A stretch of DNA of 64,000 nucleotides from Elusimicrobiota bacterium (GTDB taxonomy: Bacteria > Elusimicrobiota > Elusimicrobia > UBA1565 > UBA9628), in NCBI GenBank assembly GCA_016218545.1, contig JACRDQ010000040.1:18436-82435 (forward strand), in the 5' to 3' direction. Below, piece after piece: positions 56,279-64,000 of this stretch. The first letter of the stretch is position 1. Each line of letters begins with the position of its first letter. The notes under the pieces were generated by a model. It was not told the DNA's origin and did no database searches. It saw only the letters and a program-made list of their open reading frames with translations. The position numbers and the translations under genes were made by a program.

Positions 56279-57346
56279 TTAGGCGGTCTGCTGGCCGGTG
56301 TAGGTCTGCTCGGACCAGCCGTAGAAGCGCCGGAGACCCTCTTCGAGGGACACCTTGGGCTCGTAGCCGAGCTGGAGGCGCGCCTTGGTGATGTCCGGGC
56401 AACGGCGGTTGGGCTCGTCGGCCGGGTAGGAATCCGGGTACTCGACCACGTCGTGCTTGACGCGCCTGTTCAGCACTGTCTCGCTGATCTTGACGAGCTC
56501 CAGCATCGATATCTCGGGCTTGGGGTTGCCGATGTTGTAGGCCTCGCCGGGGAGGCCCTTGAGCAGGGCCAGGAGGAAACCCCGCAGGGCGTCGGTGATG
56601 TAGCAGAAGGTCCGGGTCTGGTTGCCTGAGCCGTAGACCTTGAGGGGGAGGTCCGCCTTGATGCGGTTGGCGAAGTTGGGCAGCACCCGGTAGTCGGTCT
56701 CCTGCATGCCGGGTCCGTAGACGTTGAAGGGCCGGATCACGGAGACCGCGGTCCCGAACTTGGTGTGGAAGATGCCGCAGAGGGTCTCTCCGAGCCTCTT
56801 GGACTCGTCGTAGCAGGCGCGCGGTCCGTGGCAGGATACGTTGCCGCGGTAGCTCTCAGGCGTGGGCACGTGCTTGGGGTCCGGGTCGCCGTAGATCTCG
56901 CTCGAGCTGAAGAAGACGATCTTGGCCCCGCTCGTCTTGGCGAGGTCGAGGCAGTTCTTGGTCCCCTGGATGGCGACCTCCAGGGTCTCGAGTGGATAGG
57001 CCCGATAATAGAAGGGGCTCGCGATCCCCGCGGCCTGGATGATGTAGTCGGGCTTCTCCTTGAACTTGAAGGGCTTGATGATGTCGTGCCTCTCGAACCT
57101 GCAGTGGGGGAACTCCGCGACCGCCGCCCCCTCCTTGCCCGCGGTGATGAGGTTGTCGAGCACGATGAGCTTGGCGGGCTTGCGGAGGCGGTGCTTGTTG
57201 AGGTGCGCGAAGGTCTCGACGAAGTAGCGGCCCAGGAAGCCGCGGCCTCCGCAGATGAGGACCGTCTTTCCCTCGAAGGCCTCGGCCACGGTCCCCAGGC
57301 CCTGGCATATCTCCGCGACGTCCGATTTGAGGAGGAATTCGCTCAT
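56279..57346 (-). CDS. NAD-dependent sugar-nucleotide epimerase/dehydratase, UDP-glucuronate decarboxylase-like (extended SDR)
   Basis: ICGGRGFLG Rossmann motif, SSSEIYG, catalytic YDESKR and GSGNQTRTFCYI. Confidence 0.85.
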   Translation of the reverse strand: MSEFLLKSDVAEICQGLGTVAEAFEGKTVLICGGRGFLGRYFVETFAHLNKHRLRKPAKLIVLDNLITAGKEGAAVAEFPHCRFERHDIIKPFKFKEKPDYIIQAAGIASPFYYRAYPLETLEVAIQGTKNCLDLAKTSGAKIVFFSSSEIYGDPDPKHVPTPESYRGNVSCHGPRACYDESKRLGETLCGIFHTKFGTAVSVIRPFNVYGPGMQETDYRVLPNFANRIKADLPLKVYGSGNQTRTFCYITDALRGFLLALLKGLPGEAYNIGNPKPEISMLELVKISETVLNRRVKHDVVEYPDSYPADEPNRRCPDITKARLQLGYEPKVSLEEGLRRFYGWSEQTYTGQQTA

Positions 57347-58611
57347 TAGAGTACCTTCACTTCCGGCAGGGGGATGATGAAGCGGCCTCCGCGCTCGGAG
57401 AAAGCCTTGTTCTTGGCCATGATGGGCTCTGCGAAGTTCCAGGCCAGGATCAGCAGGTAGTCCGGTTTCTTGTCGAGGATCGCTTGGGACGTGGTCACGG
57501 GGATGTGCAGCCCCGGCGAGTACAGGCCCTGCTTCAGGGGGCTGTCGTCCACGATGAAATCGATGAGGTCCGGGCCGAGGCCGAAGTGGTACATCAAGGT
57601 CGTGGCCTTGGCAGGAGCCCCGAACCCGGACACGCTCTTCCCGGAGGACTTGAGGTCCTTGAGGAGCCTCTGCAAGGAAGCCTTGATGCCGTCGATCTTG
57701 GCGCCGAAGGCTCGGAGCCGCTCGGGGGTCTGCAGGCCGGCCATGGCCTCCTCCGCGATGAGGGCCTCGACCGAGGGGTCGGGCCTGCGCGGCCCTCCGG
57801 CCAACTGCGCCGTGCCCCGGAGCGAGCCGCCGTGGCTGTCCACGCGCTCGGCCGCTATGAGCTCCATGCCGTTGTTCCGGAAGAAGTCCTTGAGGGGCTT
57901 CACCGAATGATAGGCCAGGTGCTCGTGGTACATGGTGTCGAAGAGGGTCTTGGTGTAGACGTCGAGCAGGTAAGAGACCTCGAAGACGAAGACCCCGTCG
58001 TCCGCGAGCAGGGTGCGCACGCCCGCGACCATGCCCTTGAGGTCGTCGGCGTGGGCGAAGACGTTGTTGGCTGTGACCGCGCCCGCGGGCCCGCGCTGGA
58101 CGCGGAGCTCGCCGGCGAGGCGCTCGGTGAAGAAGACCGGCAGGGTCTCGATCCCGGAGGCGGCGGCCTGGGCCGCGATGGCCTTGGCGGGGTCCACGCC
58201 GAGGACCTTCATGCCCGCCTTCTGGAAGAACCTGAGCAGGGTGCCGTCATTGGAGCCGATGTCCACCACCAGGCTCCCGGGCTTGAGCGCGGTCCGGGCG
58301 AGGACCGTCTCCGCGTACCGCTCGAAGTGCTTCACGAAGACGGGGGAGGTCCCGGAGACGTAGACGTAGTCCTCGAAGAGGAGCGCGGGGTCCACCACGT
58401 CGAGCATCTGGAGGTGGCCGCAGGCCCTGCAAAGGAAGAAGTCCAGCGGGAAGGTCTGTTGGGGCTTGCCCAGGTCCGCGGCCTTCACGAAGGCGTTGGC
58501 CGGAGGCGTGGGGGTGAGCTTGAGGACCTCCACGAGATCGGCGCTCCCGCAGAGCCGGCAATCGGTCCTGCGGCGGCAAGCCGCTTGTCGGGGGGCGGGG
58601 TCCTGGGTCAC
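57346..58611 (-). CDS. NDP-sugar C-methyltransferase (TylCIII/EryBIII-like; Zn-ribbon + class I SAM MTase + C-terminal C-MT domain)
   Basis: The N-terminal CRLCGS....CRACGHLQ zinc-binding pattern, the VVDIGSNDG SAM motif and the C-terminal GAPAKATTL region. Confidence 0.8.
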   Translation of the reverse strand: MTQDPAPRQAACRRRTDCRLCGSADLVEVLKLTPTPPANAFVKAADLGKPQQTFPLDFFLCRACGHLQMLDVVDPALLFEDYVYVSGTSPVFVKHFERYAETVLARTALKPGSLVVDIGSNDGTLLRFFQKAGMKVLGVDPAKAIAAQAAASGIETLPVFFTERLAGELRVQRGPAGAVTANNVFAHADDLKGMVAGVRTLLADDGVFVFEVSYLLDVYTKTLFDTMYHEHLAYHSVKPLKDFFRNNGMELIAAERVDSHGGSLRGTAQLAGGPRRPDPSVEALIAEEAMAGLQTPERLRAFGAKIDGIKASLQRLLKDLKSSGKSVSGFGAPAKATTLMYHFGLGPDLIDFIVDDSPLKQGLYSPGLHIPVTTSQAILDKKPDYLLILAWNFAEPIMAKNKAFSERGGRFIIPLPEVKVL

Positions 58612-58994
58612 TTGAGGAGCTCCACCCGGATGACGTCCTTCTCGTAGGCCGTCTGGTCGCGCTGGTTGCGCGAGAGGGTGAGGAAGACCGTCTCCTCGGG
58701 GAACCGCATGGCGTGGTCCACCATGGGCGGGGTGAAGACCATGCTCCCGGCCTTGACGATGACCTTGTCCGGCTTGGCGAGGCTTCCCGTGTCCCGGTGG
58801 AAGTAGTACATGGTCCCGGAGACCACGTAGCAGTAATGCCAGTCCGTCTTGTGATAGTGGTTGCCGCGCAGGGCGCCCTTCTTGGAGCTGATGACCAGCG
58901 CGCTCTTCATGACGCGCTCGACCAGGGGCTGGATGATCCCGCGTTCGTCGATGAAAGGGCGTTCGAGCTTGACGCGGACTTCGTCGTTAGCCAT
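58608..58994 (-). CDS. Cupin-fold sugar-nucleotide isomerase/epimerase-like protein (WxcM/FdtA-like)
   Basis: 128 aa. GALRGNHYHK...HYCYVVSG is a cupin pattern. It overlaps the C-methyltransferase start. Confidence 0.6.
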   Translation of the reverse strand: MANDEVRVKLERPFIDERGIIQPLVERVMKSALVISSKKGALRGNHYHKTDWHYCYVVSGTMYYFHRDTGSLAKPDKVIVKAGSMVFTPPMVDHAMRFPEETVFLTLSRNQRDQTAYEKDVIRVELLK

Positions 58995-60669: not shown

Positions 60670-62469
60670 ATGATGAAAACGCTTTGCCGCACCCTCCTCG
60701 CAGCCGGGACCCTGGCCCTGCTCGGTCCTGCCCCAGGCCTCGCCGCCGCGCCTGCCAAGCGGTCGCTCCAGGTCGGCGCGGCCGGAGGCGGGGCAGCGGC
60801 CAAGGCCGCTGCCCCGCAGACGCCGGTCCTGTCCGGGGCGCGAGCAGAGGCATTGGCGTCCCTGCTGGAGGACGGGGCCCTGGCCGTGCAGGTGCTCCTC
60901 ACCCTTCCCGAGGGGGTGCCGGGCGGCTTTGCCGTGGATGTGGCGGGTTTCGGCAGCCTGAAGGACGTCCGCGTCCGGACCCTGGGCAAAAGCGGCGCGG
61001 ACCTGCCGTTCACGGCGCGCAGGCTCAAGGGCGCCGCTCTGATCGAATGGTCCAGGGAGCCCGGAGACGAAGCCTTCCCCTTCGACGTCAGCTACACCCT
61101 CGGCCATGCGCTCACCGCGGGGGAGGAAGCGGACCTTCTGACCTGGGGGGTGATCAGCCCGGCTCAGACCCGGGGTTTCGCCGATGTCATCGCCATCCTG
61201 CGCTGCCGGACGCTCAAGGCCACGGTGCTCGGAGGCGCGGAGGGCACGGCGCTCAAGCCGGCCGCGTCAGGCGTCACCATGGTCGCCGAACGGCTCCCGG
61301 CCGGAACGCCGCTGCGGCTCATGGTCTCCGTGCCCAAGGGCGCGGCTCGGCCTGGTTTCGGCCTGGTCAAGTTCATGAAGACCACCGGAGGCAGCATCCT
61401 CATGTTCCTCCTGCCGCTGGCTGCCTTCCTCGCCTTGCTGGCCGCGTATTTGCTGCGGGGCATGGACCCCGTGCCTGAAGGATCGGAGTGGCACGAGGGA
61501 GGGCAGGAGCTGGCTCCCGAGGTCGCGGGCACGGTGGCCGACGAATACGTGGACAGCAGGGACCTCGCAGCCGCTGCCCTGGACATGGCCAAGGACGGCT
61601 ATCTCGAGCTCGAGTACGCGCCCGGGAGCGACGGGAACGCCGGGAGCCTGAGCGTGCGTCCTTCCAAGCCTTTCGAGGGCCTGGCCCCGCACCGCAAGGC
61701 CTTGGCGGAGCTCCTGACCTCTCCGGACGGCGCGGCCGGGCCCGGAGAGGGGGCCAGGGTCCTGGACGCGGTCTACGCGGAGACCGCTGCTCAAGGGTTC
61801 TTCCGCAAGGATCCCTCGGTCGAGCGCAAGACGTACACGGTCGCAGGCACGGCTCTCCTCTCCGCGGCCATCCTGTGCTTGGCGGCGGGCGCGGCTCCGG
61901 TGCGCTTCTTCCTGGGCGCGGTGGCGGGCTTCGCGCTCCCGTTCTTCATGGCGCGCCGGGCGCTCGCCAGCAAGTGTACGGCCGCACGAGCCGCCCTGGG
62001 ATTCGGCGCGGTCGTGGCCCTGGGCTTCGGCCTGGTCCTGGTCCAGCCCTTCATCGGAGAAGGCGGGGTGAGCTGGCTCGCCAAGGTCGGGGTGGGCCTC
62101 ATGTTCTCCTCGTTCTTCTTCTTCGCCTTCGCCTCGGCCATGCCCCAGCGCACGGTCAAGGGCTCGGCTGAGAAGGCCGCGGTCCTGGGCAGCCGTCTCG
62201 GCATCGAGATGTTCATCCCTCCTCCCGACGAGGAACGCAGGGACGCCGAGTTCCAGAAGGGACTGCCCTTCGCCGTCATCTTCCGGGTCCGGACGGATTG
62301 GGTCCGCCGCTTCTGCGCGGCCGGCGCCAAGGTCCCGGCCTGGTGGAAGCGCAGGGGCGACGGGAAGCCTGCCGCCGGGTTGAGCGAGGTCCAGACTGAG
62401 TTCGTCGCGTCCCTGGACCTGCTCACCGCCAAGATCGAGGACTTCATGCCCGCGGGGACCGGAGGCTGA
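60670..62469 (+). CDS. DUF2207-type membrane protein
   Basis: Trimmed to the ATG at 60670. Signal peptide, extracytoplasmic beta-rich domain, a TM helix, a soluble linker, then a C-terminal cluster of helices. This is the typical DUF2207 layout. Confidence 0.65.
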   Translation: MMKTLCRTLLAAGTLALLGPAPGLAAAPAKRSLQVGAAGGGAAAKAAAPQTPVLSGARAEALASLLEDGALAVQVLLTLPEGVPGGFAVDVAGFGSLKDVRVRTLGKSGADLPFTARRLKGAALIEWSREPGDEAFPFDVSYTLGHALTAGEEADLLTWGVISPAQTRGFADVIAILRCRTLKATVLGGAEGTALKPAASGVTMVAERLPAGTPLRLMVSVPKGAARPGFGLVKFMKTTGGSILMFLLPLAAFLALLAAYLLRGMDPVPEGSEWHEGGQELAPEVAGTVADEYVDSRDLAAAALDMAKDGYLELEYAPGSDGNAGSLSVRPSKPFEGLAPHRKALAELLTSPDGAAGPGEGARVLDAVYAETAAQGFFRKDPSVERKTYTVAGTALLSAAILCLAAGAAPVRFFLGAVAGFALPFFMARRALASKCTAARAALGFGAVVALGFGLVLVQPFIGEGGVSWLAKVGVGLMFSSFFFFAFASAMPQRTVKGSAEKAAVLGSRLGIEMFIPPPDEERRDAEFQKGLPFAVIFRVRTDWVRRFCAAGAKVPAWWKRRGDGKPAAGLSEVQTEFVASLDLLTAKIEDFMPAGTGG

Positions 62470-62471
62470 CC

Positions 62472-63281
62472 ATGAGCGCTGATTGCCGCATCTCGCCTTA
62501 TATCGCGACCTTCGAGCCGGTCAAGGACAGGCGCGGCGAATATTCGGACATCATCGCCACGCTTGAGCTGCGCTATCACGCCTTCGGGACCCCTAAGGCC
62601 GAGGGCTTCAAGTTCGTGGGCACCCTGCCGATCTCGGACGTCTCGGTGGCCGAAGCCGGCGGCAAGCCCATGCGCTTCTCCCAGGACGCCATGAGGGAGA
62701 CCCGCCTGTCCTGGAAGTTCGACCCGCCTCTCCAGGATTCCGAGGCCGGGATCATCATCCGGTTCCGGATCAAGGGCGCGCTGGGAGGAGACAAGGACTA
62801 CAACGTGTTCTCCGCGCCCTGGGTCTCGAACTTCAAGGTGGACGTGTCGGACGTGACCTACCGCTTCGTCTTCCCTGAGGGCTTCACGCCTTCCAGGGTC
62901 ATGCTGGCCGGCCGCAAGGCGGAGGAGCGTACCCTGCCGGACGGCAGGAGGGCCTTCGAGTTCAAGTCCTCCTCCCCTGGTCATGCCGGGTTCGGGGTGA
63001 ATTTCTACCCGGGCTTGGTGGTGCGCAAGGTTCCGACGGTCTCGTCCTCTTCGCGGTCCTACGGCAGCGGCCGCCGGGGCCAGGAGGTCCATCCCTTCTG
63101 GGTCGCGACCGTCCTGGTCACGGTGGGGTCGTTCCTGATCTGGGGCTGCTACAACTGCGTGAAGAAGGGCAACTGCGGCAGCAGCGGCGGCGGCTCCTCC
63201 TACTCGGGCGGCAGCAGCTCGAGTTGTTCGAGCTGCTCGAGCTGCTCGAGCTGTTCGAGCTGCGGGAGCTGCGGAGGATGA
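62472..63281 (+). CDS. DUF2207-N-like single-pass membrane protein ending in a Cys/Ser repeat tail (CSSCSSCSSCSSCGSCGG)
   Basis: It starts 3 nt after the previous stop. The N-domain resembles that of the upstream paralog but has no signal peptide. One TM helix (FWVATVLVTVGSFLIWGCY) is followed by a G/S-rich tail with six Cys at strict C-x2-C spacing. Confidence 0.65.
   Translation: MSADCRISPYIATFEPVKDRRGEYSDIIATLELRYHAFGTPKAEGFKFVGTLPISDVSVAEAGGKPMRFSQDAMRETRLSWKFDPPLQDSEAGIIIRFRIKGALGGDKDYNVFSAPWVSNFKVDVSDVTYRFVFPEGFTPSRVMLAGRKAEERTLPDGRRAFEFKSSSPGHAGFGVNFYPGLVVRKVPTVSSSSRSYGSGRRGQEVHPFWVATVLVTVGSFLIWGCYNCVKKGNCGSSGGGSSYSGGSSSSCSSCSSCSSCSSCGSCGG
63219..63272 (+). repeat. 9-bp tandem repeat (TCGAGYTGY)x5 plus one degenerate unit, encoding the (S-S-C)n tail
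   Basis: tcgagttgt tcgagctgc tcgagctgc tcgagctgt tcgagctgc gggagctgc. CTCGAG is palindromic and recurs every 9 nt. Confidence 0.9.
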
Positions 63282-64000
63282 CGTCCGACAGGAGGGGGTT
63301 TCGGTCCGGGGAGCCGTTCTTCCTCCAATGGCACATCACGGACCGCTGCAACCTCTCCTGCGGGCACTGCTACAGGCAGGGAGCCAAGACCGAGCCGTCC
63401 TTGGCGGACCTGCGCGCGGTGTGGGAGAACCTCCTGGACCTCAGGCGGTCCATGCCGCAGGACAAGGCCAGGGTCCAGCTCGCCGGAGGAGAGCCCATGC
63501 TCTCCCCGCATCTCTTCACGGTCCTCGATTGGGCGGCTGAGGCCGGACTGCAGGCCAGGATGCTCTCGAACGGCACCCTCATCGACCGCAAGGCAGCCGG
63601 CGAGCTCAAGGCCCATGCCTGCTCCATCGTCCAACTCAGTCTCGAGGGCATGGAGGACGCCCACGACGCGGTACGGGGAGAGGGGACCTTCGAGAAAGTC
63701 CTGGAGGCGGCAAGGTGCCTGCGCGAGGCAGGGGTCGGGGTCACCTTCGCCGTGACCCTGACCAAGGCGAGCGCGGCTGACCTGGCCGGGATCCTGGCCT
63801 TGGCGGAGCGCTTCGCCGACCGCCTGGGCTTCCACCGCCTAGTGCCCTGCGGCTCGGGCAAGGCCATGAAGGACTCGATGCTCTCTCCGGCGGAGCTGAA
63901 GAAGTCCTTCGACCTCATCCATGGGTTCAAGGCCGAGCATCCGAAGCTCGACATCCCGCTTCGAGACCCGCTGTGGAAGCCCTTCTTCCGCTGCGCGGAG
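63278..64000 (+). CDS. Radical SAM enzyme (SPASM/twitch-maturase-like N-terminal core), 3' end outside window
   Basis: Not in the ORF track because no stop falls within the window. The ATG at 63278 overlaps the previous TGA (ATGA). The translation MTSDRRGFRSGEPFFLQWHITDRCNLSCGHCY...QLAGGEPML...MLSNGTL stays open in frame to base 64000. Confidence 0.8.
   Translation, partial: MTSDRRGFRSGEPFFLQWHITDRCNLSCGHCYRQGAKTEPSLADLRAVWENLLDLRRSMPQDKARVQLAGGEPMLSPHLFTVLDWAAEAGLQARMLSNGTLIDRKAAGELKAHACSIVQLSLEGMEDAHDAVRGEGTFEKVLEAARCLREAGVGVTFAVTLTKASAADLAGILALAERFADRLGFHRLVPCGSGKAMKDSMLSPAELKKSFDLIHGFKAEHPKLDIPLRDPLWKPFFRCAE

Follow-up and report, generated by a model that had tools for sequence, protein, structure and literature searches.

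A putative radical SAM/SPASM maturation cassette directed at the cysteine-rich tail of a DUF2207-type membrane protein

Why should a membrane protein end in a run of evenly spaced cysteines, with its stop codon overlapping the start of a radical S-adenosylmethionine (SAM) gene? The question is raised by three genes that lie head to tail on the + strand at the end of a 64,000-nt stretch of DNA from an Elusimicrobiota bacterium (contig JACRDQ010000040.1, positions 18,436 to 82,435; hereafter the window). The first, A, encodes a DUF2207-type protein. The second, B, starts 3 nt past the TGA of A, and six Cys at C-x2-C spacing fall within its last 18 residues, CSSCSSCSSCSSCGSCGG. The TGA of B (63279-63281) overlaps, as ATGA, the ATG at 63278 of the third, a radical SAM gene that stays open to the window end at 64000. 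An earlier inspection of the letters alone (the sequence-only reading) had described this arrangement correctly and suggested that the tail of B is a protein-tethered substrate of the enzyme. Comparative genomics supports that idea, while the modification and its chemistry are what we infer from it. Our proposal builds on the gene order and its overlaps, the domain content, a conserved linkage between enzyme and tail, and the replacement of the enzyme in sister loci by an MNIO, all of them observed directly. Judged from sequence comparisons, the tail of B is very probably the substrate of the adjacent enzyme. That A, B and the radical SAM gene form a protein-maturation cassette, in which the enzyme furnishes the tail with thiooxazole-type ligands, seems to us an evenly balanced proposition, and a thiooxazole, the likeliest product in our view, is possible.

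Is the adjacency of tail and enzyme more than operon packing? We scanned an alignment of the radical SAM enzyme against one genome per GTDB species, obtained 404 confirmed relatives and fetched the loci of the best 80. At 62 of these 80 loci the radical SAM gene has, no more than 300 bp away and on its own strand, a tail open reading frame (ORF), defined as one with at least three Cys and at least 60% Cys, Gly or Ser in its last 30 residues. At about 10 others, among them L033, L052 (60 aa), L055 (109 aa), L036 (75 aa) and L048, the tail ORF is within 1.3 kb, is on the opposite strand, or is a short peptide missed by the filter. The remaining misses are mostly radical SAM genes at contig ends (L018, L021, L027) or different enzymes (L042, with a PqqD-like neighbour, and L049, a fusion). 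Tail ORFs make up 81 of the 3767 ORFs in the fetched loci (about 905 kb) and the 64-kb window taken together. All but that of L003 lie within about 1.3 kb of a radical SAM or MNIO gene, and B is the sole tail ORF in the window. At the Elusimicrobia locus L001, where the tail protein is 62% identical to B, a DUF2207_C gene is followed by two tail paralogues, the radical SAM/SPASM gene and a second radical SAM gene; at L002, L007 and L008 the tail protein is followed by the radical SAM/SPASM gene. The nearest public DNA to the window cassette (L001, L010, L011) is 71-78% identical.

The hosts of the radical SAM-tail pair are overwhelmingly anaerobes. They include Elusimicrobia, Lentisphaerae, Planctomycetota, Omnitrophota, Anaerolineae, Nitrospirae (Magnetobacterium group), Desulfobacterota, Bacteroidota, Ruminococcus, Oscillospiraceae and Clostridium among bacteria, and Methanosarcinales, Methanomassiliicoccaceae and Woesearchaeota among archaea. 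On the evidence of gene neighbourhoods, the pairing is not due to chance. Coincidental packing, which the sequence-only reading had allowed for, agrees poorly with same-strand adjacency at 62 of 80 loci, about 10 more cases nearby, and a spread over many phyla.

Which part of the partner protein does the enzyme follow? Clustering of neighbour genes and domain-library scans distinguished several partner types. At 31 loci the partner is of the B type, at 19 it is a TIGR04222 membrane protein (65-119 bits, cut-off 43), at 21 it is a Firmicutes DUF2207_N protein of 320-680 aa, and at L080 and L087 it is a full DUF2207 protein with N and C domains and a Cys tail. The expected synteny of the enzyme with Cys-tail or DUF2207 genes is therefore present across four N-terminal architectures, DUF2207 and TIGR04222 among them. 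Identity to the window enzyme follows partner type, at 38% or more with B-type partners and 28-36% with the others. The N-terminal parts of the partners differ; as far as sequence can tell, it is the tail that the enzyme tracks, not the rest of the protein.

Short Cys/Gly/Ser-tailed partners of 60-136 aa are also found beside radical SAM homologues (L052:2096-2278, L055:5607-5936, L036:4522-4749 and, on the - strand, L048:7083-7493), in Patescibacteria, Saccharimonas, Methanosarcinales and Ignavibacteriales. Since proteins of 60-136 aa stand beside radical SAM homologues, the tail can occur almost alone, like the precursor of a classical RiPP (a peptide made on ribosomes and then modified post-translationally).

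Independent support for the substrate idea comes from aerobe-type loci at which the same family of tail proteins stands beside a different enzyme. Next to the B-family proteins P0012 (on three contigs) and P0006, the radical SAM gene is replaced by a gene for an MNIO of the MbnB/TglH/ChrH family (PF05114, 287 bits; best NCBIfam models BufB, 235.8 bits, and HvfB, 210.3 bits), followed by a gene for its partner, a 200-aa SCO6045_C protein, with overlapping stops and starts. Upstream at MNIO loci of this type is an accessory gene for a nucleotidyltransferase-like protein of ~255 aa, 43% identical to its counterparts at the radical SAM loci L007, L057 and L068; these are no closer to each other than to the one at the MNIO locus. 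Likewise, MNIO-linked B proteins interleave with radical SAM-linked ones at 30-36% identity. From the shared nucleotidyltransferase-like gene and the interleaved B proteins we conclude that this is the same cassette with the maturase exchanged. MNIO enzymes need O2, and radical SAM enzymes are O2-labile, a difference that fits the host range. The window has neither an MNIO gene (PF05114) nor a gene for a PME-type partner around B.

The nucleotidyltransferase-like protein, of ~250 aa and Pol-beta type, is the third conserved product of the cassette. Its gene occurs at 22 loci, with radical SAM or MNIO genes and in varying order (L004:7076-7843, L007:3021-3776, L008:184-936, L037:7076-7816 and 18 other loci). 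The protein matches Pfam NTP_transf_2 weakly and has the motif G-S...S-D-x-N, in which an invariant Asn takes the place expected for the second catalytic Asp.

Residues 232-269 of B, the tail, are rich in Ser and Gly and interspersed with 8 Cys, and residues 232-266 are disordered in the AlphaFold2 model. Throughout the B family the tail columns are invariant or nearly so. All 12 relatives of B recovered by a word-indexed search bear a Cys/Ser/Gly tail closing in CGG or CGD; an exhaustive profile search extended the family to 459 representatives at E <= 1e-3. Close relatives (L010-L012) differ in how many CSS units they have, suggesting that the repeat changes length by slippage. The peptide motif (CSS)n(CGG)n is retained from 28% to 68% GC, with TCN and AGY Ser codons mixed, and selection therefore acts on the peptide and not on the DNA repeat. 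We rejected the idea that the tail is a by-product of a GC-rich DNA repeat, since AT-rich genomes encode the same peptide through other codons. The two tandem tail-protein paralogues of L001 (6284-7102 and 7090-7998; 272 and 302 aa) compare with a single tail protein in the window, and the second of them has a partly degenerate tail, DRWSSSNRWSSSSSSCSSCSSCGGCGG.

Table 1. Coordinates of the A-B-radical SAM string and of the parts of B, in window positions.
Feature	Position	Strand	Description
Gene A	60670..62469	+	599 aa membrane protein; Pfam PF20990 DUF2207_C; first gene of the A-B-radical SAM string
Gene B	62472..63281	+	269 aa; DUF2207_N-like beta-sandwich, one transmembrane helix and Cys/Ser/Gly tail; proposed substrate
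Beta-sandwich domain of B, residues about 5-180	62484..63011	+	pLDDT 90-98; all-beta by DSSP
Single transmembrane helix of B, residues 208-231	63093..63164	+	AlphaFold2 helix; hydropathy maximum at FWVATVLVTVGSFLIWGCY
C-terminal tail of B, residues 232-269	63165..63278	+	Proposed modification site; pLDDT below 50
9-nt tandem repeat AGCTGCTCG, 6.7 copies	63213..63272	.	Tandem Repeats Finder; encodes (C-S-S)n units
5' part of radical SAM/SPASM gene, 240 codons	63278..64000	+	ORF open at window end

What kind of protein carries the tail? B itself matches no Pfam or NCBIfam family. The TIGR04222 model (cut-off 43 bits) matches neither A nor B, and neither has a direct Pfam match to PF09972. We modelled B with AlphaFold2 from 13 family members (mean pLDDT 80.9). 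In this model a disordered linker connects the beta domain to the transmembrane (TM) helix (Table 1). Foldseek likens the beta domain to the N-terminal sandwich of M1 aminopeptidases and to ribophorin-type oligosaccharyltransferase (OST) subunits. The B-family profile aligns with that of a PF09972-positive Firmicutes family at an hhalign probability of 99.4% (E 2.5e-21), over the beta domain and not the tail; B therefore appears to be a short DUF2207_N-type protein with a TM helix and a Cys tail. On this profile comparison, the N-terminal domain of B is probably homologous to that of DUF2207.

Protein A has a signal-peptide-like N-terminus, an N-terminal domain of ~210 aa and a DUF2207_C region with TM helices. 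It matches PF20990 in Pfam (41.9 bits, cut-off 33, E 1.2e-10), in agreement with its earlier description as DUF2207-type, and has no NCBIfam match. It ends in PAGTGG, without a Cys tail. Its N-terminal domain resembles DUF2207_N weakly (hhalign E 1.4e-3, probability 18%). By these sequence matches A is a divergent DUF2207 protein, recognizable in its C-terminal domain and only weakly so in its N-terminal one. The sequence-only reading had placed B correctly and called it paralog-like; the position stands, and the second part does not. A and B as true paralogues are rejected at the sequence level (BLASTP E 0.52; profile-profile hhalign E 2.5e-3, probability 12%). Orthologues of A sit 5ʹ of B-type genes in 7 Elusimicrobia/Lentisphaerae loci, and A, which lacks a tail, may be one half of a split DUF2207 protein that pairs with B.

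The radical SAM gene was absent from the list of ORFs that accompanied the window because ORFs running off the window end were not listed. Its motif C24-x3-C28-x2-C31 (63347-63370) and its match to Pfam Radical_SAM (PF04055, 69.1 bits, E 6.6e-19) bear out the radical SAM core, which the sequence-only reading had likened to that of SPASM maturases. A protein search returned the full product, P0017 (380 aa), which contains the 240 codons of the window exactly; its precomputed domains are PF13186 and PF04055, and PF13186 is also present in orthologues. Beyond the window end P0017 carries the complete SPASM motif whose Cys cluster had been sought, GCSAGYCGIC...YAC...CGRCPLRWRCGGC...QC. The Cys order is C...C...C, then CxxCx5CxxC, then C, which provides the at least seven Cys for two auxiliary clusters. 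In the public annotation P0017 begins at TTG 63224, with the tail repeat translated in a different frame as MFELLELLELFELRELRR; that start is probably an artefact. The ATG at 63278 is more likely the true start, judging by the better fit of the GGGAG 9 nt upstream.

No NCBIfam model reaches its curated cut-off with P0017. The best is SbtM (TIGR04082), a Cys-modifying maturase, at 161.7 bits (cut-off 350), followed by the radical SAM enzyme of the ACGX system (TIGR04340; 153.3 bits, cut-off 400), AhbD (151.4, cut-off 500), NirJ2 (134.3, cut-off 500), AhbC (122.2, cut-off 650) and NirJ (117.1, cut-off 515). Three full-length orthologues give the same ranking, with SbtM on top in all four sequences and at 177-196 bits in the orthologues. 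The SbtM match of P0017 covers profile positions 191-515 of 516 only, so the enzyme lacks the N-terminal region of ~190 residues found in SbtM. Among solved structures, the peptide maturases SkfB and PqqE come closest. Database names of relatives are generic or are mislabels such as the JGI name “AdoMet-dependent heme synthase”; we reject a heme-synthase identity, as AhbD and the other heme models score far below their cut-offs. The full-length enzyme matches no defined family; a match to an unrelated one, such as those of heme or cofactor biosynthesis, would have spoken against the substrate idea. By its domains and model scores, it is a SPASM radical SAM enzyme of the peptide- or protein-modifying kind, outside the curated families and with no recognizable RiPP recognition element (RRE).

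At L001 (9077-10084), L010 (2898-3833) and L011 a second radical SAM gene lies directly 3ʹ of the SPASM enzyme. Its product has no SPASM domain and has a winged-helix-like C-terminal region. The window ends before the corresponding position.

Could a cytoplasmic enzyme reach the tail? We examined 50 tail-bearing B-family representatives of 240-330 aa, drawn from the 459. A signal-peptide-like N-terminus is present in 42 of the 50. The 12 residues after the TM helix contain on average 2.9 K/R, compared with 1.4 before it, and K/R are richer after the helix than before it in 35 of the 50. By the positive-inside rule, most B-family members are therefore of type I, their sandwich lying outside and their tail on the cytoplasmic side. 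In most of the family the tail is thus predicted to be cytoplasmic and within reach of the enzyme. A robustly extracytoplasmic tail, which would have told against the substrate idea, is not what the family suggests; for B of the window the prediction is ambiguous.

We propose that the three translationally coupled genes constitute a cassette in which the disordered (C-S-S)n-C-G-S-C-G-G tail of B would be the substrate of the downstream radical SAM/SPASM enzyme. Since the enzyme has no N-terminal RRE domain, it would have to recognize the repetitive tail directly. It would oxidize the cysteines one after another, spending two 5ʹ-deoxyadenosyl radicals per Cys, each from reductive cleavage of SAM, with two auxiliary Fe-S clusters taking up the electrons. 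The product would be a row of 5-thiooxazoles, each built with the carbonyl of the residue before it, through a four-electron oxidation that would lower the mass by 4 Da per Cys. Spaced at period 3, these thiol-bearing heterocycles could chelate soft metals, Cu(I) for example, while held at the membrane. The enzyme would then be the oxygen-independent counterpart of the BufB/HvfB-type MNIO, in the same position beside the same protein family. A wider version of this proposal is that RRE-less SPASM radical SAM enzymes, isofunctional and in evolution interchangeable with O2-dependent BufB-type MNIOs, install thiooxazole-type or other Cys-derived ligands on DUF2207 and TIGR04222 tails, in a widespread and so far unrecognized system of anaerobic bacteria and archaea. 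We offer this version tentatively, as one that in its full breadth may well prove wrong.

Several points weigh against this proposal. The tail protein at L003 (8001-9065; P0010, 354 aa, extended at the N-terminus) lacks a radical SAM or MNIO gene within 8 kb, so the linkage is strong but not absolute. The conserved nucleotidyltransferase-like gene is not in the window, and the Elusimicrobia version, with A and a second radical SAM enzyme, may work differently. The B protein of the window has one TM helix and no signal peptide, as the sequence-only reading had seen, nor any N-terminal hydrophobic segment, and its charges are balanced, with 2 K/R on each side of the helix; its nearest relatives (P0001, P0002, P0004, P0005) likewise lack signal peptides and have balanced charges. 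Hence, on these charges, the tail of B could face outward, and modification would then be required before membrane insertion. In bufferins, modification likewise precedes export. The SbtM match is weak, far short of its cut-off and barely above ACGX and AhbD, so sequence does not fix the chemistry. A cytoplasmic copper-binding tail would be unlike the periplasmic bufferins, and any physiological role is tentative. Finally, the modification of the tail, its chemistry, metal binding and the role of A are all steps that we infer.

If not a thiooxazole, what might the enzyme make? Thioether crosslinking of the sactionine or ranthionine type is the main chemical rival. Cys sulfurs would be joined to carbons of neighbouring Ser or Gly, turning the tail into a rigid, protease-resistant knot. 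Thioether-forming maturases typically have a SPASM domain with two auxiliary clusters; SkfB, the nearest solved structure, makes Cys-to-C-alpha thioethers; and the StsB, PapB and AlbA models match as well. PapB acts on repeated C-x3-D motifs, and the short repeated motif of the tail resembles its substrate. However, StsB (92-120 bits) and PapB (59-89 bits) score below SbtM (162-196 bits) on these enzymes, and rings would have scant space where Cys recur at period 3, separated by nothing but Ser or Gly. Moreover, the replacing enzyme in sister loci is a BufB/HvfB-type MNIO, a group whose known members convert Cys to heterocycles, not thioethers (PMC12452194). We consider thioethers unlikely as the product.

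Operon packing, release of the tail and formylglycine-type oxidation are less likely. The tail might be an unmodified appendage, of low complexity or binding a metal or Fe-S cluster, with the enzyme beside it by packing or for another substrate such as a cofactor. Gly/Ser-rich low-complexity tails are general in these families, the TIGR04222 model even being named “near_uncomplex”, and some of these enzymes bear the heme-synthase label. Not every TIGR04222 protein adjoins a maturase (PMC12452194), and the tail protein of L003 likewise stands apart. Packing would nonetheless have to explain adjacency across bacteria and archaea, with start-stop overlaps and four different N-terminal architectures, as well as heme-model scores far under cut-off and, within the same cassette, the replacement of the radical SAM enzyme by another class of peptide-Cys-modifying enzyme; we regard it as improbable. 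Somewhat harder still to credit is that B is a giant precursor whose modified tail is cleaved off as a small RiPP, the membrane protein serving as leader. The 60-136 aa peptides with the same tail indicate that the tail alone can be a functional unit, but no protease or exporter is conserved among the clustered neighbours of the fetched loci, and in hundreds of representatives the tail sits past a TM helix and a conserved folded domain. Least probable of all is an anSME-like reaction that turns tail Cys or Ser into formylglycine-type aldehydes or oxidizes them otherwise. The tail is nearly all Cys and Ser, both of them anSME substrates, and anSME belongs to the same SPASM group; yet the sulfatase_rSAM model gives a weak 78 bits in orthologues (cut-off 349), well under SbtM, ACGX and AhbD, the tail has no sulfatase C/S-x-P/A-x-R motif and no sulfatase-like domain accompanies it, and the MNIO replacement points to Cys-specific heterocyclization.

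Other genes lie near the cassette. Epimerase/dehydratase, C-methyltransferase and cupin genes at 56279-58994 on the - strand have the look of sugar modification, show no visible tie to the cassette and are syntenic with L001 at 78-88% DNA identity. From about 59002, also on the - strand and divergently transcribed from A, runs a gene for a protein of ~338 aa that belongs to no family.

What would follow if tail modification by the radical SAM enzyme were confirmed? We know of no function for DUF2207 or TIGR04222, two very large families of membrane proteins in bacteria and archaea. The proposal would give both a first molecular function, as membrane-tethered metallophores or metal buffers, and would suggest that these families serve to handle metals at the membrane. 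It would also reveal a new pair of aerobic and anaerobic enzymes for one protein modification, the anaerobic one providing a route to a modification so far mainly O2-dependent, and it would carry Cys chemistry of the RiPP type beyond small peptides to proteins anchored in the membrane. Gly/Ser/Cys tails, hitherto taken as low-complexity sequence, would become a defined and testable post-translational target, because a dedicated radical SAM enzyme tracks them, from Elusimicrobia through rumen Firmicutes to methanogens, and can be swapped within the cassette for an MNIO of thiooxazole type.

How does this cassette relate to systems already described? No link between a radical SAM enzyme and DUF2207 or TIGR04222 proteins was found in the open literature, subscription-only literature lying outside the search, which agrees with the statement of the sequence-only reading that it knew of no such system for DUF2207. 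Literature searches with tail peptide motifs, and for radical SAM/SPASM with a cysteine-rich tail, returned only DNA primers and unrelated Methanococcus proteomics, and PMC10457818 is the sole phenotype paper found for DUF2207. The open literature thus holds the MNIO half of the idea as a hypothesis; we did not find in it the radical SAM half or the connection to DUF2207. From sequence, the system is apparently undescribed and broadly distributed, a variant of known Cys-directed RiPP-type maturation that would act on membrane-protein tails through a new SPASM clade.

Closest on the MNIO side are the bufferins and TIGR04222 proteins. In bufferins, BufB turns Cys into 5-thiooxazoles with very high affinity for Cu(I) and Cu(II) (Leprevost et al. 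2024, PMC11626156). In TIGR04222 membrane proteins, most of them from Actinomycetota, the C-terminal region is unstructured, Ser/Gly-rich and interspersed with Cys; Leprevost et al. (2025, PMC12452194) proposed that these proteins, which often neighbour an MNIO and its “PME-type 2” partner, are substrates of MNIOs. In that paper radical SAM is named in the reference list only. Its adjamnio-I precursor group (122-293 aa, 8-21 Cys, followed by an MNIO and a PME-type 2 partner) may include our MNIO-linked B-type proteins. Common to both systems are membrane proteins with Ser/Gly-rich, Cys-bearing tails proposed as targets of a Cys-oxidizing maturase. The window differs in having no MNIO or PME partner, in its oxygen-sensitive radical SAM maturase and the anaerobic hosts of such enzymes, and in that B is not a TIGR04222 protein. 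The tail is predicted to be periplasmic in PMC12452194, whereas our prediction for most of the B family is cytoplasmic.

Among radical SAM systems, SbtM provides the top-scoring curated model for the window enzyme. It forms the same heterocycle as BufB, a thiooxazole, from Cys or selenocysteine (Sec) (Lewis et al. 2021, as cited in PMC11002830 and PMC12538549). Both are radical SAM/SPASM enzymes directed, in the window's case putatively, at Cys or Sec of a ribosomal substrate. They differ in that the scores (162-196 bits) stay well under the cut-off of 350, in the N-terminal domain missing from the window enzyme, and in the substrate, which is a small Sec/Cys peptide for SbtM and would here be the tail of a 269-aa membrane protein with at least 6 Cys at period 3. 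The ACGX system (TIGR04340, a hypothetical equivalog) is second-best at 153-175 bits and shares an RRE-less SPASM radical SAM enzyme of similar length and a Cys-repeat substrate, a putative one in the window. The A-C-G-X repeat of that family has period 4 and lies in a small peptide. By comparison, the score falls short of 400, and the repeat in the window, C-S-S / C-G-G, has period 3 and terminates a membrane protein. SCIFF/ranthipeptide and sactipeptide maturases (PapB, CteB, SkfB, AlbA) are likewise SPASM radical SAM enzymes with Cys-rich C-terminal cores as substrates, and SkfB is the nearest in structure; however, their models score lower, their substrates are short, leader-bearing peptides, and most of these maturases have RRE domains, while neither leader nor RRE is seen here. 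Finally, the cassette resembles DUF2207 (PF09972 / PF20990) membrane proteins in that A has DUF2207_C, the ectodomain of B is by profile comparison probably homologous to DUF2207_N, and Cys-tailed full-length forms stand beside radical SAM genes in Firmicutes. The difference is that the window splits the family into a tail-less A and a short, tail-bearing B.

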